Below, in pieces: positions 4,202 through 59,285 of a stretch of 64,000 nucleotides of DNA (positions within the stretch are counted from its first letter, which is position 1; every line of letters starts with the position of its first letter). The notes under the pieces are model-generated. The model ran no database searches. It was not told where the DNA came from and saw only the letters and a list, made by a program, of their open reading frames with translations. A program made the position numbers and the translations under genes. This DNA comes from Batkoa obscura (taxonomy: Eukaryota), in contig JASVEC010000014.1 in NCBI GenBank assembly GCA_030770535.1, positions 1,054,001-1,118,000 on the forward strand. The letters are read 5' to 3'.

Positions 4202-4299
4202 GGGGATGTATTTTTGTGTTTAAGAATTTTACTACCACTTTTTCCGCTTAAATAGCGTTTAAAAATGGAAAAAATAATGAAGTCAAAAAAAACACTCCC
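4202..4299. mobile_element. ~98-bp MITE (Sola-like non-autonomous family)
   Basis: GGGGATGTATTTTTG...AAAAAAACACTCCC termini, TSD ATAT on both sides. Confidence 0.85.
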
Positions 4300-21252: not shown

Positions 21253-21716
21253 TATGAAATCTGGTACTCAGTGTTTAGAGTCAAAAACAGCTATTGCTTG
21301 GTTGACTACACTACAAGTCGAAAGGTCTTAGTTTATGTGACTAAGATAGACTTGGATTATGAGGAATAGCACATAATAGGTTACAAGCTATATAAGACAA
21401 ACGTAATAGACAATACTAATGTAAAATCTACGTAAAATACTATTAAGAAAACCTAGTGACTTTATTAAATGTTCGAGATATCAGGGAATAATTCAGTTAA
21501 AAAGCCTCGAGCTATTATGTTTTAGAATCTCTTTTATACTCTGATAAGTATAAATATCAAAACGAGGGGAGAATATTCTTTGAGACGAAGATAGAAATTC
21601 TCATATCAAATCAAACTAAGAACGTGGGATTGATTTTCTCTGAACTTGAGAACACAACAGCTTAGGCGATTATTATGCTATAATTAACCATGGGACTGAC
21701 AAAGCGATATTTCACA
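21253..21716 (-). mobile_element. Solo-LTR-like repeat, 464 bp (copy 1)
   Basis: Termini TGTGAAAT...ATTTCA(T)A; near-identical reverse complement of 21946-22409; no TSD found. Confidence 0.7.
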
Positions 21717-21945: not shown

Positions 21946-22409
21946 TGTGAAATATCGCTTTGTCAGTCCCATGGTTAATTATAGCATAATAATCGCCTAA
22001 GCTGTTGTGTTCTCAAGTTCAGAGAAAATCAATCCCACGTTCTTAGTTTGATTTGATATGAGAATTTCTATCTTCGTCTCAAAGAATATTCTCCCCTCGT
22101 TTTGATATTTATACTTATCAGAGTATAAAAGAGATTCTAAAACATAATAGCTCGAGGCTTTTTAACTGAATTATTCCCTGATATCTCGAACATTTAATAA
22201 AGTCACTAGGTTTTCTTAATAGTATTTTACGTAGATTTTACATTAGTATTGTCTATTACGTTTGTCTTATATAGCTTGTAACCTATTATGTGCTATTCCT
22301 CATAATCCAAGTCTATCTTAGTCACATAAACTAAGACCTTTCGACTTGTAGTGTAGTCAACCAAGCAATAGCTGTTTTTGACTCTAAACGCTGAGTACCA
22401 GATTTCACA
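21946..22409 (+). mobile_element. Solo-LTR-like repeat, 464 bp (copy 2)
   Basis: TGTGAAAT...ATTTCACA 8-bp inverted termini (TG...CA); TATAAAA at 22124 followed by AATAAA at 22196, an LTR-like order. Confidence 0.72.
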
Positions 22410-22532: not shown

Positions 22533-23854
22533 CATATTATCTTATGAATATTTACTATCATTATTTTTTTTATTAAATCTTGAAATAGTTCAATTATTTA
22601 GTAAATGTTGTATAATAATTTCAGCTCGCTCATCTTTAGTTTATTTGTATTTTTAATAATAGGGCTGTAGTGTTAATATTTTATTATTATTAATTGTTTT
22701 TGAACAATCATATTTATTTTTATTCATATTAAATCCAAAACTTTTGTATTTTTATGTTTAACTATTAACAATTTTTCCGCTCAAATAGTGCTTAAAAAAA
22801 TGGAAAAGTAATGAAACCGAAAAAATATCCCCCATATCAATTAGTTAATTTCAAGATTTGAGACTTTCGTTTGAGAACATAATAAAATTAATAACTCGAC
22901 TGTTAATAATGGGAAGACAGATGTGATTTTTTAAAAGTATGAAAAAAACAAAAACATAAAAATAATAATAGAAATACAAGGCCTTAAGCATTTACATTTT
23001 ATTAAACGTAACAATGAACTACATTGTTATCCAGTATCTGATAGATAAAAAAAGCGATATAGCTCCAACTAAAGTTATAGAGTCTAACAGAAAATATAAA
23101 AATTAAAAGACCAACTCCAGCTTATCTTATAAAAACAGCAGAAAATTTGAAATTTTCAATATTTACTAACCAAATAATTTGTTAAATTATAGAAATCACT
23201 TATTAAATGGAGATGTTTTTTTTGGCTTCATTACTTTTTCCATCCTTTAATAAGTGCTAATTGAGTGGAAAAATTATTATTAAAGCTCTTAAACACAAAA
23301 ATACATCCCCAAATGTTAATATTATTTAAGTTATTAATAGCTAAGTTAATAAATAGTCAAAGAACAAGTAATTACAATAATAAGTAAAAACTATTATTAT
23401 GTTAATTGTATTACATAAGGATAGTCAATTATAGTTTTAAGACTAACCACTCCCCCTCATGCAATTACTTATTAACTTAGTAATATATTAATAATGCTAA
23501 TTATAACATTAAAATAGTTTATTTATTTGATAGTAAATCTGCAATGTTAGTTATAAAGCAGTCAATAATAAATGTTTCTCAATAAAGTTTTATAAAAATA
23601 TGTACTCATTTACATACTGCAACTTTGACTAATATTAATATATATGTTATATTAGTAAAAGCCTTGTTAATCTGGAAATTTTTGTTGGATATAGTAAAAA
23701 TTCAACCAACTTACAGTACAAACTACAATAGAATAATTTAGAGCTGTGTTGGGGTACTTTTGCTTTTTAATAAAGAATTTGTTTTTGTAAAATTTTAAGT
23801 GTTGTTTGAGTGGAAAATTTGCTAATGAAATCCTTAAATATAAAAACATATCCC
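22533..23854. mobile_element. Rearranged degenerate copy of the Sola-like element with three MITEs or MITE parts
   Basis: 22533-22745 matches 8322-8535 in direct orientation; 22840-23795 matches ~6770-7530 inverted; MITEs at ~22745-22833, 23209-23310 (TSD AAAT) and a half-MITE at ~23795-23854. Confidence 0.8.
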
Positions 23855-27147: not shown

Positions 27148-27850
27148 GGGGATGTCAGAATCGGTTTCAGAATTTATTTAAAAACCAATGCAGCTTTGAA
27201 GTTTTTAAATTTATAAGTCCTTAACATGATTAGTCAAATTTAACTTAAAGAACTTATTTTAATTGATTTATTTTTAGTAAATAATTGATTTTTTTAATTA
27301 TATACTCTATATTATTTTTATTAAATGTTTAATGGATTTATAGTATATAACATCTAAATATATAGTTCTTTGACTTTGTTTTCTATTAAAATAAAAACAA
27401 AATCTAAGCTTTTATAACTAATAACTAAACTTCGAAATGGAACTTTTAAAAATTTTGATACAGTAGAGAGAAGCTCATTATATAAACGTTATAACTCATC
27501 TAGATCAATTTCAACAACCATTCATAATAACTCAGAGTTTATGGAACTTTATGATAAGATAGAAGAAAGAAAAGATAAATTATCAAAGTTTAATATTAAT
27601 AATAAAACTTAATCAAGTAATATATAAAATTAGTAGTTTAAGGGAAACAAGAAATAAAAACTAACAAGTAGGGTTATTATCAACTATAGCTTCAGTATGT
27701 TCTTTCGATAAATGTAAAAGTTTTGGATTTAGTATAAATAAAAATCAATATTGTGGCTATTCTTTTTGGTTTCATTACTTTTTCATTTTTTAAGCACTAT
27801 TTGAGTAGAAAAATTGTTAGTAAAATTATTAAGTAAAAGAATATATTCCC
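27148..27850 (+). mobile_element. 5' fragment of the Sola-like element fused to a MITE
   Basis: Starts GGGGATGTCAGAATCGGTTTCAG (TIR); carries a decayed transposase N-terminus (ITKLRNGTFKNFDTV...); ends in a MITE at ~27752-27850; AAAT on both outer flanks. Confidence 0.75.
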
Positions 27851-27894: not shown

Positions 27895-29511
27895 TTAACG
27901 ATCAGAAATTTCATCTTTGAAACCTTTACATTCTTCATAGTACTTCTTAGGACTCATCTCGTGTAAAAGCTTTACAAACGCATCCATTTTACAAAAAGTG
28001 CCGCCTAGCTCTGGATGATGGTTTCCTGATTTAGCGCAATGTGGTAGAGTCAACACTTGGTCGTTATACTTTACTCGTACATAATAGTTCTCTTGACTAT
28101 TGGCGATCTGCTTTTGATTCGATTTATGTTGCTTATCTTCAAACAATTCGACCATAGCCTATAAATTATTAAATATTTTGCTCAAATGACTATAAATTAA
28201 CTTACAATAGATCCATAAGCTGGCCATTTGTTATCAAATGCACCTAACCCGATGACAAATGGTCCGACAGTACTATTAAAAAATTAGCAATTAAAACTTT
28301 AATCAAAAAATAAAATTATATAAAATACTTACGTATCATGTCCAGAAAAGAATGACAACTTAGCCTCATTTTGTTCTTTATTCTCCACTGCTTGTTGAAG
28401 GTGATAATTTATATCTTGATAAAACCTACCAATACCAAGCTTAACATTTTCTTTAGATTCAAGGAAACCTTTAAACCATAATTTGACTTCTAATTCATCT
28501 AATTTGGCATGGTGTTGTTCGGTATAACCATCCGGTAATTTTATACCATGAGCATAAGCGGAACTAATAGTATCATAGACTTTATGGATGGCAGTAGGAT
28601 GATCAAATTCTTTAGATTTTAGATCATCAGCCAATGAAGTTTCATTAATTAATAATTCTCTAAATGTTTGCCATTCTTTCTTCAATTCTGGTCGATAACT
28701 TAAATCAAACTCTTTTTTCAACTGCACTAATCTGTTACAAGTGAAATCCATAAACATGGTTTCATCTTTATGGGTACGTGATCGAATGATAAGATCGGTG
28801 ATTGTGTTAGTATTTATATTAGGGTAAAAACCAAATAATAAATGATGTAAAGAGTCGATAGTACGTGGATAATCTGTTGAACGTAAATAAACTTGATTTT
28901 GTTTCAATTGGTCGAAATTTTGTGGGACGAATTTTAAATGATCTACATAAATCCTTTTTAGTGCTTCACCATGTTGATATAAAGTAGAACGTCCTATGTC
29001 TGTTAACTGTCCATAAGAGCTAAATAAAAGTTACCATTTAAAATTTTTATATGTTAAAAAACATCTTATCTTACCAAGTAGCAGTATTAAAATGACTAGT
29101 TGAGTTTCTTGGTTTTGGATTGTAAGTTTTTCCATGACCATCTACTCCTTCCATTACTTTATGATAAACAAGTGGGCTATTTTCCTGATCTGAACCTAAC
29201 AGACGAGAGTCTGGATTGGATGGTTTCAATAATAAAGAACTTCCTTTGTTACTAGAATTACATAAATTCCATTTTAAAGGGAACAAATTTGGCATACGTG
29301 GACTTAATGGAGTTCTATCACCTTAAAAACAAAATGTTATGTTTTTTAAAATGGAATTAAAAGCCCATTTACCATGTCTATGTACAATGAGTAAGTGCTT
29401 CAATTCCAAATTAGAAGGATATAATTTCTTTAAAGTTTCGAAATCACTCTTTGGAGAGTTGGCTCTAGGCAATACAAACTCTTTTTGTTTTATTTCGGTG
29501 GTACTCGTCAT
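27895..29511 (-). CDS. Histidine acid phosphatase (ACP6-like), multi-exon
   Basis: LIVHRHG/DRTP, GQLTDIG, YLRSTDYPRTIDS, FFSGHDT, WPAYGS and YYVRVKYN motifs. Confidence 0.9.
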
Positions 29512-31227: not shown

Positions 31228-32340
31228 ATGGTTGATTTAAAATTTAAATATAAGATTACATAAAACTAACCTCGATTTTAGTCCAGAGTTGAACTATTGA
31301 GTATTGAAGGTACTATAATTAATGTCTCAAGTATAATACCAACTAAAATTTAGGTTTAAGAGTTGATGGCAGGCGACCAAATGAGCTAAGAAAACTAGTG
31401 TCTAAAGTAGGAGTATTAGGAGATGCTGATGGATCAAGTTATTTAGAATTGGGAAACACTAAAGTGTTAGCAACAGTTTATGGACCTAGAGAGGTAAAAT
31501 TGGACATGTTTAATCAATTAGAATTAGATTAAATTCAAATAAATTCTAAATAGCCAAGAAAAAGATCAGCCATTTTACATGATAGAGCATTTATTAATGT
31601 AGAAATTAATGTTTCTCCATTCAGTACCAGTGAACGTAAAAAGCGTAGTAAAAATGACAAGTATTTAACATCTTTTATTGTATTTGAAACATGAAATTAA
31701 TTCTTTTAGGCGCATTATGGAGATGGCCCAATCAGTTAAACAAACGTTTGAGCCCATCATCCTTACCCAATTATCATCCCGTTCACAGATTGACATTTTT
31801 TTACAGATTTTACAGGATGATGGCGGTAAATCTAAATGAATTCATTTTTTTATATTCAAATATTTATAAAAACAGGTATCCTCCAAGCCTCTATTAATGC
31901 AGCAACACTTGCTTTAATCCATGCTGGTGTACCAATGAGTGATTATGTATGCGCTACTTCTGCAGGTTTTATAGAAAATACTGCAGTGCTTGGTATGTAT
32001 TAAATAAGCTAATATTGAAAAATAATTAACCCATTTTAGATATTAATCAAATTGAAGAGAGATCCTCCCAGTCGCCAGAGGTAACGGTAGCTGTCTCACC
32101 ATTGAGTGGAAAAGTTATATTGTTACAGGTAAAGAATGGGCTAAATTCTAGTGTTAATATTGAATTTTTATATAGATTGAATCTAAACTGCGTAATGATA
32201 ACTTTCAAGAAGTAATGGAGCTTGCGATTCATGGTTGTCAACAAGTTAAAGAGATTTTGGATTCAACCGTGAGATCAAATACTACTTTACTTGCAGAAAA
32301 CAATAAGAAGAATTCAAATAAGCCAACCAAAACTTACTAA
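31228..32340 (+). CDS. RRP41: Exosome complex RNase PH-like subunit Rrp41/Ski6
   Basis: ATG-only first coding exon 31228-31230, then [78 protein letters not shown]; stop 32338-32340. Confidence 0.93.
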
Positions 32341-32469
32341 GTTATAGAGCTAAAAGTGTTGATTAAATAGAATAAGTATTACAATAGCAAGTTTCAGATA
32401 CTATGTAATTTTTTTAGTTCGCTTTATTAAAAAAGAATAATTGAATTTTTGAAATAATATTCCCAAGCT

Positions 32470-33476
32470 TTTTATTAAGCATGATTACTTAATGTATATG
32501 TTTTCTATTGATTTTTATAAAGCTAATGAAGCTTTAGCTAAGCTCTCTATTTCAAATGTATACTACAAAATGATAATCTTTCGTTCAGTAAATTATTTCT
32601 CTTACAATTGTTTTTTCTTTCAAAGAAATGCTACCAGAAAATGAGCCTTTTGAGTCAAAACGTTATGAGCTATTAAGTGTTTTATATGATTTTTTTATGT
32701 TGGCTTTGGTATAGCATTATTTACATTTTGCTGTAGAAAGTATTATAGAATAACTCAAACTATTTTAAAAAGGGCCTTTTTTATGTTCCACCTCTTTCAC
32801 ATCGCCAACATTTTTTAATTTAATTGTGTTTTCAGCTAAGTTTTTTTTGATCGATGCATTTTCCCATCACAATCCTTCTCTAAAAATTATTATGTTTTAC
32901 AGCTTATACATTAAGTATAATTCTCCTTATTTCTAAAAGGGGGAATATGTTTTAATCAACGCTAGCACATGGGATTTTTTTTTGGTTTCATCACTTCCAT
33001 TTCTCAAGCACTATTTGAGTGGAAAGGCTATTAGTAAAATTTTTCAACAAAAAAATATATCCTCATATTTTACAATACGCTGTTATTTGCCCTTCGATAC
33101 TCACTATTAGAGCATCAGGCGCCAAATAGTGTTCATTCTTGAAGTAGGTTGGCTTCAAGTATAATTATTCCATCTCTTCCTTTTTTAATATTTTATTAGC
33201 TTCTAACTTACCACCTATTTAACTACTAAGTCAGACAAACATGTTTTTTCTGGCAATTTATCTTCAACTCGCAAGCTTTCGTCTTTTTATGTACTATGCA
33301 GTTTATTATTTTTGTTCTTCTATCTTGCTTCAAAGCACATCTTAACTCCTGTTAAAAAGCTGATTTCAATATTGTAATTGACTTATTAAACAATTTGGAC
33401 ATGTCTATAAGACTATTAACATACCTGTAAGTAGTAATTTTAATACTGGATTGATTACTGTGTCTGTAGATGATAT
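32470..33476 (-). pseudogene. Full-length decayed duplicate of ZNRD2 (unit 1), with a MITE at 32971-33064
   Basis: Colinear nucleotide similarity to 38801-39752, e.g. ACAGCTTATACATTAAGTAT vs ACAGCTTACACATAAACTAT and AAAGCTAATGAAGCTTTAGCTAA vs AAAGCTAATAAAGCTTTGGCTAA; start ATG mutated to ATA; no long ORF. Confidence 0.85.
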
Positions 33477-33584
33477 AGTTTCAATCTCAAGTTTGAATAC
33501 GAGAAAGCTGAAGGTTGTGAAAGTTCATGTTCATGGTAATCTTTATAGGCAAAAATTTAAACCATTCTTTAATACTTGAAGACT

Positions 33585-33607
33585 AGCCAATTAAAAACCG
33601 ATTTTGA
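33585..33607 (+). promoter_or_regulatory. Conserved CCAAT-like promoter motif AGCCAAYYAAAA..ATTT(T)G upstream of ORF A
   Basis: The same motif occurs at 36847 and 39854, and partially at 41336. Confidence 0.55.
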
Positions 33608-33921
33608 TACTATTTTCCATGTTATTAGTAAAAGTGCTACGCGTTTAATCCCAAATTGCCGATTTGTTTGATATTTCTGCCAGGTTATTAAAAACTATAG
33701 TAGTACAATTAATGTAAATTTGATAATTTTAAGCAGATTAAAATGCATCTGTTTACAGTAACAAAACTCATAAAATATACATTTTGATTTGTAGAAAGTT
33801 AGTTAATTTGAAAAGTTTAATTGGCAAGGAGCTTTTAGAAGCCTTCCAAAATTGAATTGGAAATACTGTAGAGATGATTCCTCATTATCTTTATTTAAAC
33901 TTAAATAATATTCAATTTAAA

Positions 33922-34944
33922 ATGAAATCGAAGCCGAAACGTATAAGTAATGAAGACAGGGAAAGGATTGTTGACTCCTATATCAATGGATCGCGTCAAC
34001 AAGAAATTGCTAAAATAATGGGCTTTAGGCCTAGGACTGTTTATACTATTATAAAGAAATATATTGATGGAGAGGATTATACTATAAAAGCAAGCAGGGG
34101 AGAAGGAGGAGAAATGAAGAAGAAAATTATGCCAGAATCCCAAAGGAAAATGATTCAGTCTTGGGTTGATGAAGATTCCACTATGTCAATAAATGCAATA
34201 AAAAAGAAATTGATGAATGAAATAGAGATCAAAGTAAGCGCAGACATTATAAGCAGAAGCTTAAATGACTTTAATTATTCTTTCAAACGTATCAATTTAG
34301 CATCTCAAAACAATGACACCCTTACTTTAGAATTTAGAGCTTTTTATGCCAATAACTTCATAAATGACATATTGAAGCTTAATGACTCTAGAGTTATTTT
34401 TATAAATGATGCAACATTCAACATTACAATGCGTACAATTAATAGAATAACTAAGAAAAAAATAAAAGTTGATCCATTTAACAATATGCTCCGTAAAAAA
34501 AACGTATCGATATGTTGTGGTATGAATAAAACCGAAATTATTGAATGGCAAACTCAACCAAAGCGCTTCAGTACTGAATCATTTTATCAATTTATTAAAT
34601 CAATTCTTTTTAAACTTACTCAAAAGAATATTAAAGAAGCAGTGATAATTATGGATCATGAGTACATTGAAAAAGATCTAAAGATCAAAGAATCCATTGA
34701 AGCAAGCGATCACACGTTAATTTGCTTACCACCTTATTCTTTGTTTCTAAATCCTATTGAATATATGTATGCTAAATGGAAACAATTAGTCAGGGCAAAT
34801 GGTCCACAAAATGAAGATGAATTATATAATGTTTTCAACAGTGCTTTATCAGAAATAACTCACACTGATTGTAAAGATTTCTATGAGCGTATGCTCGATT
34901 TTTTGCCTAAATGTATAGGAAAAGAAGAAGTACTTTATGAATAA
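33922..34944 (+). CDS. IS630/Tc1-derived protein A (HTH + winged helix + DDE_3-like domain, ND34E), probable domesticated transposase
   Basis: EDRERIV..Y..G...EIAK..G...RTV..II HTH; YSFKR linker; VIFINDATF, IIMDH and LPPYSLFLNPIE with 34-aa D-E spacing; no TIR or TA TSD seen. Confidence 0.85.
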   Translation: MKSKPKRISNEDRERIVDSYINGSRQQEIAKIMGFRPRTVYTIIKKYIDGEDYTIKASRGEGGEMKKKIMPESQRKMIQSWVDEDSTMSINAIKKKLMNEIEIKVSADIISRSLNDFNYSFKRINLASQNNDTLTLEFRAFYANNFINDILKLNDSRVIFINDATFNITMRTINRITKKKIKVDPFNNMLRKKNVSICCGMNKTEIIEWQTQPKRFSTESFYQFIKSILFKLTQKNIKEAVIIMDHEYIEKDLKIKESIEASDHTLICLPPYSLFLNPIEYMYAKWKQLVRANGPQNEDELYNVFNSALSEITHTDCKDFYERMLDFLPKCIGKEEVLYE

Positions 34945-35214
34945 ATATGTATTTATGGTTTCATTGTCATTTAATTTTTAGTTATTTGAAAGTTCCATTT
35001 TTCAGATTTCGATCTATTATGTTGTATTTGTCTTTTGATGATAATTCTACAAAAACAGGTGATTTTAAAAGGATGATTTTAATATAAAATCGAATGTATA
35101 TGGATAGTAAATATAATGTTAGCACAATTCTTTGTAGTTATAGCACAATTCAATAACTTATCTATTTAAACTGAACCACCGCAAGTTGTTGACAGCTTAC
35201 TTTTTCTAGCTGTT

Positions 35215-35620
35215 TAGCACGGCTCAAGTAAACCAAAGAGGCCTCCACAATTTACAGCAGCAACAATAGCTATCACATATTCCCATTTAAAACTCATAAT
35301 TTCAAAAATAAAGACAGACTAATGCTTAGCACTATATGTGGACGTTTTTTTGGCTTCATCACCTTTTCCATCTTTTAAGCGCTATTTGAGTGAAAAATTT
35401 TTTGATAAAATTTTTAAACACAAAAAATACATCCCTATATTATCTTTTGGTCATAATTGAGATAGATAATGATAGCTTTTAGGAGGTCATAAAGCTTGAA
35501 ATCCGTTAATACCAACACTAGTTAAAAGTATATTGTGTCTCCGTGTGAAATTTGATATTAAGTTGATTGCAGTAAAAGTTAAGGAGTAGAAAAAGTCCAA
35601 ATAAATTCGTTAAGCCTCAG
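35215..35620 (+). pseudogene. Decayed duplicate of the RRP41 3' exons (unit 2), with a MITE at 35338-35436
   Basis: GATAATGATAGCTTTTAGGAGGTCATAAAGCTTG vs RRP41 CGTAATGATAACTTTCAAGAAGTAATGGAGCTTG; MITE TSD ATAT. Confidence 0.7.
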
Positions 35621-35734
35621 AGCTAATGGCATAGTTAAATAGATAAACTAAAGATAACAGATATAAATACAATTTTAAGCCTCGGTATTTTATTAAAGAA
35701 TAATGATATAATTTTAAAAGTCTGTTTAATCTAA

Positions 35735-36745
35735 ATAATTATTTAATACCGCTGTATTTTATATCGTTTTCTTTGTTATCTAATAGAGTTTACTTTAAAT
35801 GCTCTATCTCAGATACATTGCTATATAATAAAGAGTTATTGCTTAACAATTATATTTTTCTTCGTTTGTGGTTTTCCTGTCAAGGAAATGGTATTTGGAA
35901 AGGACCCTTTTAAGTAACATTCTTAGGTGGGCCTTTTTCTATTGGCTTTAGTATAGCATTAGAAATTTTAGTACACAAGATATGGGCATGTATTTGTGTT
36001 TAAGAATTCTACTAACAATTTTTCCGCTTAAATAGTGCTTAAAAAATGGAGAAATAAATGAAACAAAAAAAACACCCTTGTATATAAAAATATTTAGTCG
36101 ATATCTCCATAACACCTCCCTTTTATATACCAACTCTTTTTAGTCGCTTTTATTTTGTGTTTTATCTGGAATTTCAGGTAGGTTTATTCATGCGTATGGA
36201 CTGTTGTATTATGAGTCTTTTTTGAAACGTAGTTTGTTTCATAGCTCATATATAATCTATGCTTCTCTTTATTTCTAGCTAGTGGAGGATATGTTTAGTT
36301 AATTATCATTTTCAAATTAATGTACATTATTACCTCTTGATATTTGTTATTAGAGTATAAAGTGTGCAACATCGCTTGTGTTTAAAGTAATTTGGTTCGA
36401 CATATTTCATTCATGCCATTTCATTTCCTGTTAGGTCAACTTTCCTTTAACTTACCATCTCTTTAACTAGTAAGTGTAACAATTCTTTCTCTTTCTGGCT
36501 TTATCTTCAGCTTCCATAATTTTCTCCTTTTATGTCTATTCTTTTTTATCTCTGTCAGACAATGCAAAGCGCAATATTTTTGTTTTTCTACCTCATATCA
36601 AAGGACACTTTAATGTCACATAGTAGCCTGATTTGATTTGTTTGTTATGCTAACCAAATGACTTTGAAATATTCATTGGGTCATTGTTTTGTCTTTGATT
36701 AAACATTCAGATAAAAACTTTTTATTCTATCTGTTATTGAGCTAC
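35735..36745 (-). pseudogene. Decayed duplicate of ZNRD2 (unit 2), with a MITE at 35984-36079
   Basis: CTGTCAAGGAAATGGTATTTGGAAAGGACCCTTTTAAG vs CTGTCGAAGAAATGTTATGCGAAAATGATCCTTTTAAG; TTACCTCTTGATATTTGTTATTAGAGTATAAAG vs TTACCCCTTGACATTTGCTATTAGGACATAAAG. Confidence 0.8.
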
Positions 36746-36951
36746 TTTTAAGTATAGTTTTGTTTAGAAAAATTGAAAATATTAATCTTAAGGCAAAGTT
36801 AGCATAAAAGGGCAAAGTCATATAGCATTTTTCAAAATTCAAAACTAGCCAACCAAAAACAATTTGACCTTAGTTCTCTATGTATTTGAAAAATGATAGG
36901 CAATTATTTTTTGACATCATTAATAATTTAAACAATAGTTCAATATATAAA

Positions 36952-38034
36952 ATGAGATATAATCTTATTAGCAATGAAGACAGAGAAAGGATCGTCGATT
37001 CCTATATTAATGGATCTTGCCCAAGGCTAATTGCCAAAGTGATGGGTTTTAAGCGTAGGACTGTTCACAATATTATAAAAAAATATCTTGATGGAGGGGA
37101 TTATAGACGACAACAAAAACAGAAAAAAGCAGAGCTAGATCCTAGAAAACGAATTGTCGATTCTAAAAGTGAAATTATACAAGCTTGGGTTGATGAAGAC
37201 TGCACCATATCATTAAATACAATGACAAAAAAACTGAAGGATGAAAAGAATATAGACTTAGGCATAACAGGTATACATAGACGTATGAAAGATTTTAACT
37301 ACTCTTTTAAGCGTATAAGTTCTGCTGATCAAAATAGTGGGTCAAATCACCACAAAAAAAAAAGTACTGATGAAAGTAATGATCTGGTTGCCCAAAAAAG
37401 TGATTTCTCTACGCTAGAAATGAGGGCTTTTTATGTTGGTATTTTTGTTAGTGAAATAGCAAGACTTGATGATTCTAAAGTGTTTTTTATAAATGAAGCA
37501 ACTTTTTGTATTACAACACGTACAAAATATAAAAAAGAAGATATTATAAATAAAAAGTTTCCTGTTACTGGCCCTGGATTCAATACAAAAAACATTTTGT
37601 TATGTTGCGCTATGAATAAGCATGCAATAGTTGAGCATCAGACTCAGTTACATTCTTTTGATGAGGAATCATTTCATCAATTTATTCAAGTAGTCATCCT
37701 TAAGTTTACTCAAATCAATATAACAGAAGCGACAATAATTATGGATAGCGTATTTGTTGATAACAATCCAAGTATTAGAAGACTAATCGGAGCAAGCGGC
37801 CACAGGTTGATCTGTTTACCGCCAAACTCACTGTTTCTAAATCCTACTGAGTCCATCTATACCAAGTGGAAGCAGTTAATCAGAGAAAAAGATCCGCAAA
37901 ATGAGAGAGAATTGTTTGAGACTGTTAACAATGTTTGGTCAGAAATAACAAATGCCGACTGCAAGTCGTTTTATGAGCATATGTTAAGCTTTATACCAAA
38001 ATGTTTACAAAGAATGGAGATAATTGATGAATAA
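36952..38034 (+). CDS. IS630/Tc1-derived protein B (ND34E), probable domesticated transposase
   Basis: Paralog of A and C: VFFINEATF, IIMDS, LPPNSLFLNPTE; ~21-aa in-frame insertion after YSFKRI. Confidence 0.85.
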   Translation: MRYNLISNEDRERIVDSYINGSCPRLIAKVMGFKRRTVHNIIKKYLDGGDYRRQQKQKKAELDPRKRIVDSKSEIIQAWVDEDCTISLNTMTKKLKDEKNIDLGITGIHRRMKDFNYSFKRISSADQNSGSNHHKKKSTDESNDLVAQKSDFSTLEMRAFYVGIFVSEIARLDDSKVFFINEATFCITTRTKYKKEDIINKKFPVTGPGFNTKNILLCCAMNKHAIVEHQTQLHSFDEESFHQFIQVVILKFTQINITEATIIMDSVFVDNNPSIRRLIGASGHRLICLPPNSLFLNPTESIYTKWKQLIREKDPQNERELFETVNNVWSEITNADCKSFYEHMLSFIPKCLQRMEIIDE

Positions 38035-38394
38035 CATTTGATTAATACTTTTGTGTTGTTATCATGATTATTATTTTCTGTTTTGATACCTTTGTTTTAC
38101 AATGTGTCTTTAGGCTACACTTATTTTTTGTTAATAATAAGCTTTAATCAGCCTTGCGTAAATAGGATAGCTATGTTTAAAAGCATTGTTGCATAAATTT
38201 AAGAAATAAAAAGTAAATATAAAATGATATACAGCATCATTTTTGTATTTCATAACTTAAAACATAAAAGAACCATTAGTTAATACAGGAACTAAAAAGC
38301 ATAGCCAATGGTTTTAGCAAATGTTACACACTACGCCTTGTCATTTTAGCAATGAATTTATAATTAGTTGATAGCCTCTGTTCTACCTTTAGCA

Positions 38395-38690
38395 TTATTA
38401 AACTAAATTGAAGGTCCATTGCCCTTGTATCTAGAAATGACATAGCTATCTCACTACTCAGTGCAAGAGCGTATTATTTTAAATAAGTAATCTATTGTAC
38501 TTTAGTATTTGATAAAATTTATGTTTAGACTAGATGCAATCTGATAATGGTAGCTTTCAAGAAGTTATGGAGCTTGTGATCCATGACTATCAACAGGCTA
38601 AAGCTATTTTGGATTTAACTGTGAGATAAGATATTAATTTGCCTTCAGAAAATAATAAGGTCTCAAATAAGCCAACTAAAGTCCATTAAA
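38395..38690 (+). pseudogene. Decayed duplicate of the RRP41 3' exons (unit 3)
   Basis: GATAATGGTAGCTTTCAAGAAGTTATGGAGCTTGTGATCCATGACTATCAACAGGCTAAAGCTATTTTGGATTTAACTGTGAGATAA aligns to the last RRP41 exon (32190-32280) and contains a premature stop. Confidence 0.85.
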
Positions 38691-38800
38691 TTATAGAGTC
38701 GATAACTTAAACAAAAGAACTGCAAAGTGTTAAACTTGAGTCCAAAAGTCATGAATTTTATTTCATTTATTAAAGTATAATAACAAAACTCAAAATCTGT

Positions 38801-39752
38801 TTATCTTGTATCGCTATTTAATGTCATTGTATTTTCCACTAATTTTTGTAAAGCTAATAAAGCTTTGGCTAAATTTTCTATCTCAATTATATTATTACTT
38901 TGGGATAATCTGTCATTAAGTGAATTAATTTTTTCTATAGCTATCTTTTCTGTCGAAGAAATGTTATGCGAAAATGATCCTTTTAAGTTAGAATACTGTG
39001 GACTACTAAAACTATCTTTAGATGACTTTACTTCTATTGACTTTGATGTAGTATTTGGTAAGCTCAACTATATAAAATATCAAAAAACGCTTTTATTGAT
39101 ACGGAAATAAATACCTTTTTTTTATACTCCATCTTCCTCAAGTCACCAGCGTCTTTTGGTTTAGCTGTAGCTTCAGATAGGTTCCTTTTTGCTCCATGTA
39201 TTTTTTCGTCGTAATCCTTTTCCAAAATGTATTGCGTTCCACAGCTTACACATAAACTATGCTTTTCTTTATTTCTGACTAATGGAATCTATTTCAATTA
39301 ATACTAATTTAAAAACAACTATTGTAAACTTACCCCTTGACATTTGCTATTAGGACATAAAGTATCTAAAAGTGCCCATCCCTGAAGTAGTTTTGCTCCA
39401 ATTGTTTCACTTATTTCGTCTCTTCTTTTCTTATTATTTCCATTAGCTTCTAAATCATCTTCTCTATTAACCGTCTCAGGAGATAAAGTTTCCCCTTTTT
39501 CTGTTACTATATCTTCAATTTGTAAGTTTTCCTCTTCTTTCGTGCCTAATTTTTTTTCCTCTTCACATACTGGACAGTGCAACACCTTTGTTTTTCTGTC
39601 TCTCATCAAAGGGCACTTCAATACCAGTTAGTAAAATGGTTTTAATAATATAATAAATTTACTGGACAATCTGGGCATATTTGTGTAGTCATTATCATGC
39701 CTTTAAGTAAGCATTCGGATACTAAACTGGCCGCTCTGTCCGTTGATGACAT
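38801..39752 (-). CDS. ZNRD2: ZNRD2/SSSCA1 (autoantigen p27) double zinc-ribbon protein, 4 exons
   Basis: MSSTDRAASLVSECLLKGMIMTTQICPDCP/CPLMRDRK...HCPVC and ISETIGAKLLQGWALLDTLCP..KC/IPLVR...LCVSC repeats. Confidence 0.88.
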
Positions 39753-39952
39753 GTTTCTAGTTTAAAGTCAAATACGAGAGCTAATAATAGAGAGGAGATT
39801 ATCTTCAAATATTTTAGGAGAAAATAGCATAAACTTTTTAACCCTTTAAAACCAGCCAACCAAAACTATTTTGGTCAGAAAACCATGTCAAAATAAAGTG
39901 CAATAAGTGATTTTTTTTAAACTTTTGTTTCATTCGTCATTTACTTCTCAAA

Positions 39953-40978
39953 ATGAAATACCAAAAAATTAACGACGAAGACCGAAAAAGTGTCATCAAC
40001 TCTTATACTGATGGAACCAACGCTACAAACATTGCCAAACAAACAGGCCTTAAACGTACCACAGTTCAAGCAATTATAAACAAATATCTAAATAGCGAAG
40101 ATTGCCCTGAAAAATTGAAATTAAAAGTTCAAGAAAAAAAAGCAGTACCTCAAGATAAGACCATATCGGAATCCCAGAGAGAAATAATGCATTCTTGGAT
40201 TGATGAAAACTGCAACACCCCAATAAAAGCTATAAAAGAGAAAATGAAGGATGAAATGGGATTAAATGTAAGCGAATCTTTAATAAATGAACATCTGAAG
40301 GCCTTTCATTTTTCTTTTAAACGTATTAATTTAGCTCCTCAAAATAACGATTCGTCTACTCTGGAAAACAGAGCTATCTATGCCAATAATTTTGTGGATA
40401 ACATAGAAAAACTCGATGACTCTAAAGTTATTTTTATAAATGAAGCAACATTCAGTGTTTCAATGCGTCGGAATAGAAAAGCCATAATTAAAAAACCAAA
40501 GTCAAACAAGTTTATTCCTGCACTTCGTACAAAGAATATATCAATGTGTTGTGCTATGAGTAAATGCGGAATAGTTCAATTTGAGGCTCGATTAAAACTT
40601 TTTGATATTGAGTCATTTGATCAATTTATTAAATCAATTATCAAAGAATTAAAGAAAAAAGGCATATCAGAAGCGACAATTATTATGGACAGTGCTCATA
40701 TTGACAAAGATCCAGCAATGAAGAAATTTATTGAATCAAAAGGGTATAATTTAGTTTCTTTACCATCCTATTCTGAGTTTTTAAATCCTGTTGAGGCCAT
40801 GTATACCAAGTGGAAGCAGTTAGTCAGAGGAAAAGATCCACAAAGTGAGGAAGAATTATTTGAAGTTTTAGAACAAGTTTTACTAGAAATTTCAGAGGTT
40901 GATTGTAAAGGTTATTTTGAACACATGCTTAGTTTACTACCAAAATGTATCAGAAAAGAAGAGATCCTTAATGAATAA
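39953..40978 (+). CDS. IS630/Tc1-derived protein C (ND34E), probable domesticated transposase, head-to-head with ZNRD2
   Basis: VIFINEATF, IIMDS, LPSYSEFLNPVE; its ATG is 200 bp from the ZNRD2 ATG. Confidence 0.85.
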   Translation: MKYQKINDEDRKSVINSYTDGTNATNIAKQTGLKRTTVQAIINKYLNSEDCPEKLKLKVQEKKAVPQDKTISESQREIMHSWIDENCNTPIKAIKEKMKDEMGLNVSESLINEHLKAFHFSFKRINLAPQNNDSSTLENRAIYANNFVDNIEKLDDSKVIFINEATFSVSMRRNRKAIIKKPKSNKFIPALRTKNISMCCAMSKCGIVQFEARLKLFDIESFDQFIKSIIKELKKKGISEATIIMDSAHIDKDPAMKKFIESKGYNLVSLPSYSEFLNPVEAMYTKWKQLVRGKDPQSEEELFEVLEQVLLEISEVDCKGYFEHMLSLLPKCIRKEEILNE

Positions 40979-41492: not shown

Positions 41493-42614
41493 ATGACATC
41501 GATTACCCGAAAGAAAAGTTTAGTATGAATAATGAAGTGAGAAAAATGATTATTAAGTTTATATTAAGGAAAATAATATAAAAGATATTCTTAGAATAAC
41601 AGGCTACAAAAAAAACTACTGTTTATGACATAAGAAATTATACTGAGAGGAAAGGTCAGAGTAGAAAATCGAGAGCAGTACCAAGACTTAATTCGAGAGC
41701 CCTATCAGATAGTCAAGAGAAACCTATACGAAGTTGGGTTGATGAAGATTGCAAAAGTATGACGCCAGCAATAAAATAGAATCCGTTAAAGGAAATGAGG
41801 GTAAATGTAGGCCGATCAACTACATCAAGATGTACAAAGGCATTTGATTGCTTTTTGAAGTGTATTTATTTAGCCATTCAAGATGAAAATTCAGTCCCTC
41901 AGGATAATGGTTTAGATATGCTAGAAATGAGATCTCACTATACTAGCATTTTTCTAAATAAAAAATTAATTTTTGATGACTTTAGGATATTTTTTATAAA
42001 TAAAGCAACATTTTCCATTACAATGCGCACCAAGTATAAAAGGAGAAAATTAAAGTTGGAAAGCTTACTTCCCTCGGTCCTGGATTCAAAACAAAAGATA
42101 TATTACTGTGATGTTATGAATAAAAATGGGATAATCAAACATCAGACTCAACTAAACTTTTTTGATAGAGAATCTTTTTTTCAATTTATTGAATCAATTA
42201 TAGACAAGTTTGCTCAAATGAATACATCGGATGTAATAATAATCGTAGAAAATATGCTAATAAAGATCCAAATGTTAGAAAGCTCATTGAAGTAAGTGAA
42301 CACAAATTCTCTGTTTCTAAACCCTGCTGAGTCTATTTATACCAAGCGGAAGCGGTCAATCAAAGAGAAAGATCCGCAAAACGAAAGAGCATTGTTTGAA
42401 GCTGTTGGCAGTATTTGATCAGGATTATCAGAATCTAATTATAATGATTCTATAACATATGGAGATATATTCTTTTGTTTAAGAATTTTACTAACAACCT
42501 TTCCACTTAAATAGCGCTTAAAAAGTGGAAAAAGTAACGAAGCCAAAAAAAACACCCCTATATACTACATCTTTTATCAAGGTGTATAAAAAAAGAAGTA
42601 ATAAATGATAATAA
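41493..42614 (+). pseudogene. Fourth, pseudogenised IS630/Tc1-derived paralog D, with a MITE at 42461-42559
   Basis: Frameshifted fragments MNNEVRKMII / ITGYKKTTVYDI / RSWVDEDC / IFFINKATF / FLNPAESIYTKRK..EKDPQNER / SRCIKKEVIND; MITE TSD ATAT near the 3' end. Confidence 0.85.
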
Positions 42615-42994: not shown

Positions 42995-43789
42995 TTAATT
43001 TTGTTCATCATCCTCACGGTTTCCCTTATATTTCCCCTCCTTAGTTGAAACAGGTGGAGTAGATAGAGGACGAGGAGGCAATAAATGTTCTGGTATAGAA
43101 AATTTCCTAACATCGGGCGGTAATAAAGGCTGATGATGGTTTGCAGTAATAGTTTCCTGATCGATCTCATTAATTACAACCCCATTCTGTAGCTTATCAT
43201 TCAACATAACAATATCATGATGTAGCTTAAAGTTCTCATTTTCTAACCGTTTCACTTTCTCTTCCAACTCAGATACATACATCTTTTTCTTTAAGCGTGA
43301 GTCTTGTGCTGCTATTCTATTTCTTATAAGGCGTCTTTGTCTCTTTTCAATGGCTGTCTCATTTGGTTTGCCTGATGACGAGTTGATTTCATCCCTTGAG
43401 TTTGTACCAGTTGATCTAGTATAGTATGGTGTTAGACTGCCATGAGAACGTATCATTCCACTTTGATTAGAGTTTGGTGAGTCGCAGCGACTAGACCCAG
43501 ATTGATAAGGAGAAATAGCTGGTGGATGGCGGTTTCTTGGGGAATTGATAGAAAGATGAGCTACTCTTCTGGCAACTTCATTTGGCTCTATAGGCATATT
43601 TTTATTTGGGATGGACTGTAAATTAGGGTCTACTTCATATTGATTTGGAACTGAGTTCAAGGGTTTTGATGATACATCATAGGATTGATTGTAAAGCATA
43701 TCTTCAGTATTGAGGATGGCGTGTATTCCAGATTTTCGTGGGTTTGAATCGGGTTGATATGAGTTGGGATTGTTGTTTGGGTTATCCAT
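42995..43789 (-). CDS. bZIP transcription factor (ATF/CREB-like), intronless
   Basis: KRQRRLIRNRIAAQDSRLKKKMYVSELEEKVKRLENENFKL basic region and zipper. Confidence 0.9.
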   Translation of the reverse strand: MDNPNNNPNSYQPDSNPRKSGIHAILNTEDMLYNQSYDVSSKPLNSVPNQYEVDPNLQSIPNKNMPIEPNEVARRVAHLSINSPRNRHPPAISPYQSGSSRCDSPNSNQSGMIRSHGSLTPYYTRSTGTNSRDEINSSSGKPNETAIEKRQRRLIRNRIAAQDSRLKKKMYVSELEEKVKRLENENFKLHHDIVMLNDKLQNGVVINEIDQETITANHHQPLLPPDVRKFSIPEHLLPPRPLSTPPVSTKEGKYKGNREDDEQN

Positions 43790-44104
43790 AAAATAGTGAA
43801 AATGAATTTAACAATTTTTTAGTTGTTATTTACATAACCATAAGCATAATTTAATGAGCAAATGAAAATTGTAATTTTATTTTAATAAACCATACAAATG
43901 AAGTATATATCGGAATGCTTATTCTTAATGGCTTCATTGCATTAAAATAAAAATATTTTTTGGGTTTATGAGTATAAGTGAACCAATAAAGCCCCTTTAT
44001 TTAAATTTATTTACCAATTAAGAATAACTCGTCATCATTTTTAACTTCGGAATAAATTCTTAAAAGTGTTGTTTTTATTTAACTATTCCAAAAAACAGAA
44101 TAAA

Positions 44105-44773
44105 ATGGGTGCAGTAGGACGCTTACATAGTATACCAAACTACGAAAGAGCAAATAAAATTTTGATTGCAGCTAAGCTTAGCAATGTTGAAATCGATTAC
44201 GATCCAAACTTTAAATTCGGTGTTGATAATAAGACTGAAGAATATATTGCTAAATTTCCATTAGGTCAAGCACCTGCTTTTGAATCTAAAGATGGTCTTT
44301 TATTGACAGAATCTGATGCCATTACTTTTTACATCGCTTCACAAAAAGAAAACAACCCTCTATTAGGCTCTAATAAAAATGATTATGCTAAGATCCTTCA
44401 ATATTCTTATTACGGTGCAACTCAAATCACTCCCCCAGCCCTTCAATTGTATATGCCATTATTTGGCTTTGCTGAGTATGATAAAAAAGTCGAAGAAGCA
44501 GCTTATACACGTATTGATAAAGCATTGAGTTATCTTGATAACGAAATCAAAGGAAAAGAGTATTTAGTTGGAAATCATATTACTTTGGCAGATGTATTTA
44601 TGTTTTGTGTTATGGATGGACTCTATCGTATGTTTTACACGAAAGAGCATCGTGATCAATATCCTAATTTTTCTAGTTACTTTGAGCGTATTTCTCAAAT
44701 ACCTGAGGTCAAGGAAGTCGTTGGAGAGTTTAAATACGCGCAAGAACGTAAAAAATATACTCCAAAGGCTTAG
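44105..44773 (+). CDS. Glutathione S-transferase of the eEF1B-gamma N-terminal type, stand-alone, intronless
   Basis: GVDNKTEEYIAKFPLGQAPAFE, LTESDAI, EYLVGNHITLADV; ends YTPKA* with no EF1G C-terminal domain. Confidence 0.85.
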   Translation: MGAVGRLHSIPNYERANKILIAAKLSNVEIDYDPNFKFGVDNKTEEYIAKFPLGQAPAFESKDGLLLTESDAITFYIASQKENNPLLGSNKNDYAKILQYSYYGATQITPPALQLYMPLFGFAEYDKKVEEAAYTRIDKALSYLDNEIKGKEYLVGNHITLADVFMFCVMDGLYRMFYTKEHRDQYPNFSSYFERISQIPEVKEVVGEFKYAQERKKYTPKA

Positions 44774-53512: not shown

Positions 53513-54891
53513 TGAGATGTCTGAATTGGTTTCAGAATTGTTTAAAAATTAATTCAAGTTCTAAATTTACAAGTCTCTTAATGTGTGATTAATAATTGGA
53601 TTTAAGAAGCTTAAAATTAAATAAAATTTAACTTGAAAGACTTGTTTTAATTTATTTTTAATTTATTTTTTTAATCCTATGTTTTATACTATTTTTATTA
53701 AATATTTAATAGATATATAATATATAGTTATTTGACTCTATTTTTTATCGAAATGATAATAAAATCCAAGCTTTTACAATTAAACTTCAAAATAGAATTT
53801 TTAAGTTTTAATATAATAGAGAGAAACACATTATATAAGCACTATAATTCGCTTACATCAATTTTAATATCTATTTATAATGGCCCGAAGTTTGTAGAGT
53901 TTTATAATAAATAATACATATTGTTGAAACTTAATAACAACAATAATAAACACTTATTAAAAATATATTGTAACATTTTTTTTGGTTCACCATTTTCATC
54001 TTTTAAATACTATTTGAGCGAAAAAATTGCTAAAACTCTTAAATACAAGAATACATCCCTATATATAGGAGATTGTTTAATTAATTTATACCTAAAGAAC
54101 CTTTATTCAAAAGTATGAAATCTGGCGCTCAGTAGTTAGAGTCAAAAGCAGTTTTTACTTGATTGGCTTAGCCGCAAGTCGAAAGGTCTTGGTTTATATA
54201 ACTAAGATAGACCTGAATTATGAAGAATAGCACATAATATGCTATAGACTATGTAAGACAAGTAAAATAGACAATACTACTATAAAATATACTTAAAATA
54301 CTGTTAAGAGAATTTAGTGGCTTTATTAAATGTACGAAATATCAGAGAATAATTCAGTTAAAAAGCCTCGAGCTAATATGTTCTAAAATCCCTTTTATAC
54401 TCCGACAAGTACAAATATTAAAACGAGAAGATAGTATTCTTTGAAATGAAACTGGAAATTCTCATAGCAAATCAAACTAAGGGGGTTTGAATTGATTGTT
54501 CCCGAACTCGAGAACACAACAATTTAAGTGATTATGCTATAATCAACCATGGAGCTGACAAAGCGATATTTCATATAGTATTGTAATACTTTATTCGTTT
54601 GATAGCAAACCTGCAATGTTGACTACAAAGCAGTCAATAATAGATATTTCTTAATGAAATTTTATAGGAATATGTATTTATTTACATACTACAACTTTGA
54701 TCAATATTAATATATAGATTATATTAGTAAAAACTTTGCTAATCTGGGATTTTTCATTAAATTTAATAGAATTTTACTACTCATAATATAAACTATAATA
54801 AAATAATCAAAAATTGTATAAGTACTTTTATTTTTTAAAACATGGAATATTTAAAAACTCAATAAAAAACGAAATCAATTAGGACATCTTT
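53513..54891 (+). mobile_element. Internally deleted, decayed Sola-like element containing a MITE and a solo-LTR-like repeat
   Basis: Both TIR remnants present (TGAGATGTCTGAATTGGTTTCAG; GAAATCAATTAGGACATCTTT); transposase 5' remnant at ~53760-53910; MITE at ~53969-54060. Confidence 0.78.
54114..54575 (-). mobile_element. Solo-LTR-like repeat (copy 3, diverged)
   Basis: Colinear with 21253-21716 (TATGAAATCTGG...CTGACAAAGCGATATTTCATA) with many substitutions. Confidence 0.75.
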
Positions 54892-57407: not shown

Positions 57408-58335
57408 GAGCGCCAATGGGTAATTGTATTCGTGTAGTAATAAATTTTAATTTGGTAAAAAAACTTAGTTTATTTTTTAGTTTGACGCCTTTTCTACGAG
57501 TTTGTAGCAGTATCTGAAGTAATATATATTCAATAACATTTAAAAGTTAAACGAATATGAAATTAAATACTAAAGAAGGAAGGATTTATTAGTATAAAAA
57601 TGCCATTTTTATTGTTCTTATTTTGAATTAACATTTGATTAATCAATTTAGAGATGCATTGTTTCCCTTAAAAGTCTAGCTGTAAACCTCTTATCTTTAA
57701 CTGTTTAAAATGAACAAGATATTAATTAAAGACACCAAATTCCTAATGGGGCGAAATAATCTCTAAAAGTAATATAACACTGTGTTAATATACAATTTGG
57801 TCTTTTTTCTGGTAAAAACTATAATTTCAGTAATTCAAAAAAGACAAAAACTACTAGATGATATAAACTTGTAAAGTTGATGGGTTTTACTTCAAAAAAT
57901 AGGCTCCGTTTTATTTATTTCTTATGGCTTCTGTTTGAAACTATCTATGAGAATCCAATTTGATTTAACCTAATTTTTAAGCTAGTCTGAGTAACATAGT
58001 AGTAGGTTAAACCTTCGTAATCATTGGTATTAAAATATAGTAGCAGAATAAACGCTTTTCAGTTGATTTTGTAAGTACATACCACATATAAATTATTTTT
58101 TAATATTTAATACCAGGAACAGTTTAGACCCCATAATTTACTATTTTAAATTAATAGGAGCTCTCATTATTCAGCTCTGTCCCGGTTCACATTGATTTAT
58201 TTTTATAATTAATAGAGGCCATAATGTCATAAACATTAAGTGTAAAATAAAACTAATAGATTCAATCTTATAAGCTTGAGTCAAATGAATTATTTGAAAT
58301 ATGAATGATCTTTTATAACTTTATTTAAATTATAT

Positions 58336-59285
58336 GGGGATGTTTTTTTGTCTTCATTACTTTTTCCATTTTTAGCGCTATTTTAGTGGAAAGATTGTTA
58401 GCAAAATTCTTGAACGAAAAAATACATCCACATATATTATAAACATTTTATTTATTTTTTATTTTTGCCTAATAACATAATGTTTTGTTTATTAAAATAT
58501 TGAAAAACTGTAGTAATAAAATTTAGAAAAAAAAGTAACAGGAGACTGACAAATCCTAATACTGAGAATGAGTGACACAGTAAGTTGATTATCAGGCTGC
58601 AAAAATTAGATTGAAATTAATGATTTATACTTTAGGCTCAAAAAAGATCAAGTGGAGTTTTAACTCATTTTTAAATAATTTATAAATATTTATATAAGAT
58701 TTGACTGTGGTTTAGTTACCAAAGTTTAAACAGATTAATTTTCGTATAATGAATATTGTAATATTGGCTCAAATGATTGAATTGATTTAAATGATTAAAT
58801 TTGTTTAAATAACACCAAAAGCTATTAAATATTTTAAAAATATAAGTATCACTAGTAAGAAGGGAAAGTTTGGGAAATTAGTTAAAGTACTAATATTGTA
58901 TAGAAATATATTTTTAATTTCATCACTTTTTAAGCACTATTTGAGCAGAAAGATTGTTAATAAAATTCTTAAACAGAAAAATATATCCGCATATGCTATT
59001 TCTTCGCTTGTGAAAAGAATCTCTGTATTGATAATTTATCAAATTCTTATTGAAAATAATGCACGCATTTATTCTAGATCTGTGTTTAACTAATGTTGAG
59101 TTATATTATAACAATAATTTGGTTTTTTAATAACCTATCTTAACTAAATTTTATCAAATAAAAACTTTCAATATCAAACATACAATATAAAGGTGTCTTT
59201 CTAGTATCATCTTTTTTTTAGTTTTTTAAGTGCTATTGGATGGAAAAAGGGTTAGTAAATTTCTTAAACAAAAAAGAGTATTCAC
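58336..59285. mobile_element. Three ~98-bp MITE copies
   Basis: 58336-58431 (TSD ATAT), ~58902-58990 and ~59189-59285 (degenerate). Confidence 0.78.

Follow-up and report, generated by a model that had tools for sequence, protein, structure and literature searches.

The 64,000-nucleotide (nt) window analysed here, positions 1,054,001 to 1,118,000 of contig JASVEC010000014.1, contains three open reading frames (ORFs), termed A, B and C, that belong to a lineage-restricted, domesticated gene family of IS630-Tc1-mariner (ITm) transposase origin, evolving by birth and death. All three are intact, single-copy, selected genes derived from a DD34E transposase, and in our judgement they probably serve their fungal host by binding specific DNA sequences without cutting them, a role suggested by their predicted domains; that they have been domesticated in some form can be held with greater confidence. 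The ORFs arose by segmental duplication together with pieces of two host genes, RRP41 and ZNRD2, whose decayed copies provide an internal control. A first-pass annotation, made from the sequence alone, had proposed such a family and named four findings that would speak against it, namely a ratio of nonsynonymous to synonymous substitution rates (dN/dS) near 1, lack of expression, near-identical copies flanked by terminal inverted repeats, and failure of the pseudogene alignments; none of these was found.

A triplicated unit with decayed host-gene copies

Self-comparison of the window, which is AT-rich eukaryotic DNA with short introns, recovered the three collinear units of approximately 3 kb that had been described, each consisting of the 3′ end of RRP41, a minus-strand ZNRD2 copy and a single-exon ORF. 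On the plus strand, ORF A (33922-34944; 340 amino acids, aa), ORF B (36952-38034; 360 aa, including a 21-aa in-frame insertion) and ORF C (39953-40978; 341 aa) run uninterrupted from ATG to stop, and their mutual identity of 43-49% (tblastn) agrees with the earlier estimate by eye of half or less. In place of a DDE triad, A and B carry N-D34-E and C carries N163-D246-E281.

The exosome subunit gene RRP41 is whole in unit 1 only (31228..32340, plus strand, ATG at 31228), with eight exons at 31228-31230, 31282-31309, 31354-31493, 31554-31660, 31710-31825, 31876-31992, 32040-32128 and 32176-32340. Six of its seven introns were seen as joints in RNA contigs, and its product matches RNase_PH (E 1e-10) and Rrp41 structures. 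ZNRD2 (SSSCA1; autoantigen p27 zinc ribbon, PF06677) is whole in unit 3 only (38801..39752, minus strand, four exons, 270 aa), where all three introns are spliced in RNA contigs and the spliced product is identical to KAI9292863.1 of Neoconidiobolus thromboides FSU 785, which points to that species, or one very near it, as the origin of the window. Translations and spliced joints thus bear out the earlier placement of both intact genes.

The other four host-gene copies are decayed, as had been claimed, and all align above shuffled sequence (z 80, 64, 11 and 48; 100 shuffles each). ZNRD2 pseudogene 1 (32470..33476, minus strand) has 8 frameshifts and 11 stops, and ZNRD2 pseudogene 2 (35735..36745, minus strand) has 9 and 12, in 813 nt compared with the intact gene; both have lost the start. 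The RRP41 copies, at 35215..35620 (plus strand, z 10.6) and 38395..38690 (plus strand, z 47.7), comprise the last two exons only, the 5′ part of the gene being at shuffle level (z 0.2 and 1.1). A miniature inverted-repeat transposable element (MITE) is present in three of the four pseudogenes, each time within a former intron: in former intron 2 of ZNRD2 pseudogene 1 (32965..33072, strand not applicable), in former intron 3 of ZNRD2 pseudogene 2 (35977-36084) and in the first RRP41 pseudogene (35333-35443); the second RRP41 pseudogene has none. The proposal that the ORFs were multiplied by segmental duplication, along with host-gene pieces, holds, as does their lack of terminal repeats (see below).

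Purifying selection on A, B and C

The pseudogenes serve as a control for unconstrained sequence at this locus. In the two ZNRD2 copies, 17 of 21 indels shift the frame and 23 stops have accumulated; the same nucleotide aligner found four distinct indels among A, B and C, all multiples of three, with no frameshift and no stop. At the pseudogene rate, 24-26 lesions would be expected per ORF, the chance of none being approximately 1e-11 for each, and neutral simulation yielded no stop-free sequence in 4,000 trials per ORF and setting. Codon models covering 338 of 365 codon columns gave pairwise dN/dS values of 0.20-0.23 (GY) and 0.33-0.38 (MG), with values below 1 on each branch (p 0.00001-0.009), as against 1.2-1.3 for the ZNRD2 pseudogene pair. 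The proposal that each paralog is under purifying selection is therefore upheld. Constraint differs along the protein, with dN/dS of 0.30 in the PAI domain, 0.33 in both the RED domain and the core, and 0.14 in the first beta strand, and values of 1.09 in the linker and 1.36 in the clamp-loop region.

Predicted fold and lost transposition motifs

Sequence matches place A, B and C in the ITm fold, with a paired helix-turn-helix (HTH; PAI/RED) and an RNase H-like DDE_3 domain of D34E spacing. The N-termini match HTH_SB, HTH_28 and HTH_23 and resemble the PAI domain of Sleeping Beauty (E 1e-6), and the C-terminal parts match DDE_3 (PF13358; E 2e-13, 1e-7 and 4e-14). A predicted model of modest confidence (pLDDT 64.9) shows two three-helix groups at the N-terminus, and its top fold matches are Mos1, Sleeping Beauty and SETMAR. 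A SET domain was looked for in A, B and C without a match, the pogo-type DDE_1 gave none at E 0.1, and CENP-B_N reached E 0.048 in A alone, below the cutoff.

The predicted active site retains the Tc1-type spacing of 34 between D246 and E281, and its first residue is Asn in A, B, C, a decayed paralog termed copy D, and the database proteins P0001, P0003 and P0012. Replacement of the first Asp of the triad by Asn generally kills catalysis. The changes D163 to N and G166 to T are found in all six family proteins that cover the site, and none of the four full-length members keeps the clamp-loop residues G176/R177/S178 or H251, P275 and F284, positions that are 74-100% conserved in 103 reference relatives, the subset with an intact DDE triad (and so with the first Asp by definition) among 150 listed. 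The full-length members do keep R140, N195, D246, N278-P279, E281 and W287, and 86 of 366 columns, approximately a quarter, are invariant among the four. In the Sleeping Beauty transposase SB100X, the available text assigns the clamp loop to transpososome assembly and target binding, and catalysis to D153, D244 and E279 (PMC4820933).

Single-copy loci within a wider family

Terminal inverted repeats were sought between the 450-nt flanks of A, B and C, and the best matches were no better than those of 300 shuffles (p 0.97, 0.82 and 0.09); there is also no second transposase gene in the unit. In a DNA sequencing run (X2), A, B and C have an even depth of 42-47, against up to 54,000 over the MITE, and no near-identical copies are indicated by depth at 90% identity in that run, on which, along with protein records, copy number is based. 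As to the suggested check of copy number, the depth in this run points to single-copy loci at 90% identity.

As well as the three intact ORFs, the locus contains copy D (approximately 41510-42450, plus strand), which was missed by the first-pass annotation. It carries approximately six frameshifting deletions and two stops, has lost its 3′ end at a MITE (42452-42564), and is sister to B (bootstrap 99); it retains Asn at the first catalytic position. RRP41 and ZNRD2 remnants were looked for between C and D and none was found. The earlier claim that the transposase-derived copies survived while the host genes decayed accordingly holds for A, B and C but not for this fourth copy.

A profile search with look-ups added six predicted N. 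thromboides paralogs, spread over four further contigs: KAI9298879.1 and KAI9298884.1 (contig of 339,379), KAI9292018.1 and KAI9292012.1 (contig of 30,964), KAI9295494.1 (contig of 109,902) and KAI9294844.1 (contig of 91,780). The near accessions and contigs of equal size suggest that the first two pairs are probably local clusters. One of the six is full length; the other five are predicted as partial proteins and may be pseudogenes or partial models. A quick tree of 64 of 154 rows, from which lower-ranked and most short matches were left out, unites A, B, C and the outside paralogs in one clade (SH-aLRT 100, stem 0.84), and N163, T166 and Y284 are common to the family wherever covered. As the paralogs outside the locus carry the same lesions, domestication predates the triplication.

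Outside the family, the best relatives are DDE_3 proteins of 330-360 aa with 30-37% identity and an intact DD34E, those looked up being unnamed or labelled only ‘transposase’, and its Atlas neighbours are eukaryotic and giant-virus DDE_3 clusters. A protein search with C alone yielded a single protein from 1,947 candidates, failing to recover known paralogs; a family-alignment search returned 18 among 2,454, of which P0034 was the only family member beyond the query rows. A metagenome scan found four loci at 26-37% identity. P0001 was considered as an ortholog in another species and rejected: ZNRD2 matched the same species, and P0001 lies on a different contig. The protein collection lacks full-length A, B and C and holds an 87-aa piece identical to B; since their ZNRD2 neighbour is present, such genes were probably discarded as repeats.

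Two side observations concern related sequences. A contig of run X4 (depth 145) matches B briefly at 36994-37013 before continuing into different family-like sequence, and is a further paralog not among the proteins found. P0009 (named a ZAD-domain protein of Anopheles atroparvus), P0016, P0049 and P0155 (an A. gambiae locus) are related, Tc1-like proteins that have broken triads and extra sequence at the N-terminus; the mosquito proteins P0009 and P0155 are possibly an independent co-option of the same lineage, and no paper on mosquito Tc1-like co-option was found in our literature search.

RNA contigs and a diverged relative

Four sequencing runs (X2, X4, X9 and X10) were compared with the window. 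None is recorded as RNA; their RNA status is a guess backed by spliced joints, which are seen in X9, X4 and X10 and not in X2. All four contain A, B and C, and the ORFs lie within contigs of the three runs with spliced introns, although such contigs show neither strand nor level. Four strain differences are listed in A and B, three of them synonymous.

Run X10 represents a relative that is approximately 6-10% diverged, with introns spliced, and therefore allows orthologs to be compared. In RRP41, all 18 listed differences are synonymous, out of 21 differences in 358 nt over three exons. ORF A shows 59 differences and no gaps in 833 nt, with a further 34 differences in 382 nt of a 5′ piece, and ORF B shows 96 differences and no gaps in 1174 nt. 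ORF C lies on one contig with spliced ZNRD2 (77 differences in 1319 nt; six gaps, of which the four listed are all in the spacer). Over 1,911 nt, A and B show no gap, against these four listed ones in the 200-nt spacer (conditional p 8e-5). The position of C beside ZNRD2 is thus shared with the relative; the orthologs of A and B are on separate X10 contigs. Some bins over the pseudogenes lack X10 coverage (5 of 30 bins at depth 0), and this was not used as evidence.

Proposed role and alternative explanations

We favour a history in which the host retained one ancestral DD34E element that had lost its termini as well as the first catalytic Asp, after which the gene would have spread by local and dispersed duplication. 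At this locus, a 3-kb segment starting inside RRP41 would have been duplicated two times; decay then took the host-gene copies and D, and spared the three transposase-derived copies. Births would include A, B, C and P0001, and deaths D and probably some of the partial paralogs. Through its PAI/RED helix-turn-helix pair, the N-terminus likely contacts DNA sites, which possibly differ between paralogs, and the dead RNase H domain has likely been kept as a scaffold for protein contacts. A retained HTH pair with varied recognition helices, combined with a catalytically altered core, fits non-cutting DNA-binding proteins. Within this explanation, host gene regulation seems somewhat the likelier role, and transposon silencing roughly a close second.

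A more specific version would make the family a lineage-specific set of transposase-derived repressors, which by multiplying and by varying their DNA-binding helices keep pace with the mobile elements resident in the genome. It would be comparable in a fungus to the birth and death of KRAB zinc fingers, and would help to keep the genome nearly element-free. The main text of the genome paper gives a Ty3 content of 0.01% in N. thromboides against 38-57% in entomophthoralean relatives (PMC10515909). We regard this version as speculative and rather unlikely.

Several observations weigh against the proposed role, or against the strength of its support. Copy D decayed. The annotation had treated the pseudogenes as an equally old neutral control; this control is strong as regards frame and stops, but the equal age is only approximate, with synonymous distances of 1.0-1.2 for the ORFs and 0.5-0.8 for ZNRD2 pseudogene pairs under the same model. 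It may be that the ORFs somewhat predate the flanking copies; alternatively, the pseudogene distances, lowered by the dropping of gapped and stop codons, may be underestimates. Codon positions 1 and 2 of the ORFs (distance 0.39-0.42; third positions 0.68-0.71) have changed approximately 70% as much as the pseudogene pairs (F81 0.54-0.57), and because of these distances we conclude that frame and fold are firmly constrained, and amino acids only moderately. The RNA contigs of X9 and X4 also cover non-coding DNA and so do not single out the ORFs, and X10 likewise covers approximately 500 nt of non-coding sequence after B, which calls for caution. The ortholog dN/dS varies with the yardstick (A 0.13-0.51, B 0.19-0.64, C piece 0.03-0.35), being 0.03-0.23 overall with RRP41 synonymous sites as the neutral rate and 0.35-0.64 with nearby non-coding DNA (approximately 11%, an estimate). 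The X10 differences in the ORFs are itemised only in part, so that premature stops there are possible, and two of the six gaps in the C piece and one in the 5′ piece of A are unplaced.

A further such observation is that D246 and E281 are kept in seven of the eight paralogs covering them, although a fully dead site would not need them, and this also favours domestication as an enzyme, a nuclease or one that processes DNA ends, working through a non-standard N-D-E site in repair or programmed rearrangement. N278-P279 and W287 are present in all four full-length members, N163 is invariant, and the lowest dN/dS falls in the first beta strand; SETMAR likewise has a modified, D-D-N, site. Some fission-yeast Cbt proteins have full triads and other domesticated transposases are active, according to the available text (10.1101/2022.12.06.519325). 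Against this stand the changed first Asp, which by definition all 103 reference relatives possess and which corresponds to one of the three SB100X catalytic residues (PMC4820933, available text), the loss of G166, H251, P275, F284 and the clamp-loop motif, and the neutral evolution of the clamp region. With about a quarter of all columns invariant, retention of D246 and E281 may be structural, and we consider an enzymatic role unlikely.

A mobile element might instead carry the ORFs as passenger or helper genes, or mobilise them in trans as non-autonomous copies, with selection acting on the element and not on the host; we hold this to be quite improbable. Paralogs do occur on at least five contigs, and a transposase relic that lacks the triad is described from Dici elements, where it is under purifying selection (PMC13469147). 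The unit here, however, lacks terminal repeats and a second transposase gene, is single copy at 90% identity and includes RRP41 and ZNRD2 pieces; its copies are 43-51% identical, and the position beside ZNRD2 is common to a diverged relative. Slightly less probable again is a selfish host-resident family that stays intact because it favours its own transmission, as a meiotic driver or an addiction gene does. Copies both in tandem and dispersed, rapid change of amino acids and births and deaths would suit it, but A, B and C are present in all four runs, and no toxin-like or antidote-like domain is among their domain matches. Neutral relics, open by chance or younger than they look, would fit the similar total nucleotide distances of ORFs (0.47-0.49) and pseudogene pairs (0.54-0.57), but are already refuted so far as present data reach by the simulations, by dN/dS below 1 on all branches and by ORF synonymous sites that are, if anything, more diverged than those of the pseudogenes.

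Comparison with known domesticated transposases

SETMAR (Metnase), in which a SET domain is fused to a DD34D-type mariner domain (Hsmar1) that matches the predicted model in fold (Foldseek E 1e-6), is a single fusion gene with the third triad residue changed to Asn (D-D-N), whereas A, B and C are changed at the first residue, keep Glu at the third, have no fused domain and belong to a family of many paralogs. The closest parallel to A, B and C as putative DNA-binding proteins is the Cbp1/Abp1, Cbh1, Cbh2 and Cbt1-6 group of fission yeasts, likewise a fungal, multi-paralog set of domesticated ITm proteins with an HTH pair and DDE fold, for which the available text describes degenerate triads in the S. 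pombe members and paralog gains and losses (10.1101/2022.12.06.519325). The two groups differ in origin, Cbp1/Cbt being pogo/Lemi-derived whereas A, B and C have DDE_3, D34E spacing and an SB-type PAI domain. Cbt orthologs are also old and 79-96% identical, whereas the present family was found only in records of N. thromboides and in one close relative, and expands in tandem with host-gene pieces. Vertebrate pogo-derived genes (PMC7386202) would be similar in their workings, but A, B and C, with DDE_3 and D34E in place of a pogo domain, fall outside that group.

Compared with IS630-like eukaryotic DD34E elements (the Gambol, Hiker and Dici neighbourhood), A, B and C stand apart in lacking termini, an intact triad and the clamp motif. 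Dici CDS3 resembles them as a triad-less, transposase-derived ORF with a retained DNA-binding domain under purifying selection, but lies, in the account available, within a mobile, repeat-flanked, multicopy yeast element, whereas A, B and C are fixed single-copy loci (PMC13469147). Several domesticated transposases per genome, from independent events, are described in the available text for Xenopus Kolobok (PMC6004289), and multiple domestications for insect PIF/Harbinger (PMC9710019); these are other superfamilies, whereas the present family is one clade with shared lesions.

Although domestication as such is well known, what is new here is that a lineage-restricted family was domesticated independently and has expanded by birth and death. 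A literature search confined to main texts and thin on subscription papers found no description of it, and the terms ‘domesticat’ and ‘transposase’ are absent from the main text of the genome paper covering N. thromboides (PMC10515909). The locus represents a clean, internally controlled case of a host-kept transposase family in an early-diverging fungus, and the family is a small system in which to ask what a cut-dead Tc1-like protein does for its host, and whether its paralogs diverge in their DNA targets.

Other features of the window

A candidate promoter motif upstream of the ORFs (33584..33596, also at 36846 and 39853, plus strand) has three matches in the 64-kb window, one ahead of each ORF; as the motif was derived post hoc, its status as a promoter element is suggestive. 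ZNRD2 pseudogene 2, whose longest stop-free stretch is 63 aa, is nevertheless transcribed and spliced at 36279-36333 (minus strand). The joint, seen in runs X9 and X4, retains the ancestral donor but has an acceptor that has shifted, and a bidirectional promoter common to this pseudogene and ORF B appears to be still alive. Neighbouring host genes include a histidine phosphatase (28329-29030), a bZIP factor (42995-43807) and a GST-fold protein (44045-44773).

The MITE, approximately 107 bp long with short G-run/C-run inverted ends and very high genome copy, occurs at approximately 20 window sites, for example 4188-4334, 32965-33072, 35333-35443, 35977-36084, 42452-42564 and 58322-58450. Depth in X2 is 9,000-54,000 in MITE bins (approximately 9,000, against 43, in the bin of ZNRD2 pseudogene 1). 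The idea that it is a derivative or target of the transposase-derived family was unsupported, as MITE ends are absent at the ORF flanks, save for the insertion that truncates D.

A 571-aa open frame (7141-8856, minus strand) without a match in a Pfam search sits in a repeat, with related pieces at approximately 22534-23807, 27236-27751 and 53518-54838 and fragments 70-87% identical elsewhere in the window. Its Atlas neighbours are DUF7869 and unnamed Zoopagomycota and rotifer clusters (0.95-0.97), and the repeat is possibly another DNA transposon family. Lastly, a 462-bp inverted repeat (arms 21253-21716 and 21946-22407, 99.8% identity, 230-bp loop), flanked by MITE copies and related to 54114-54573, is either an assembly artefact or a foldback that formed very recently.

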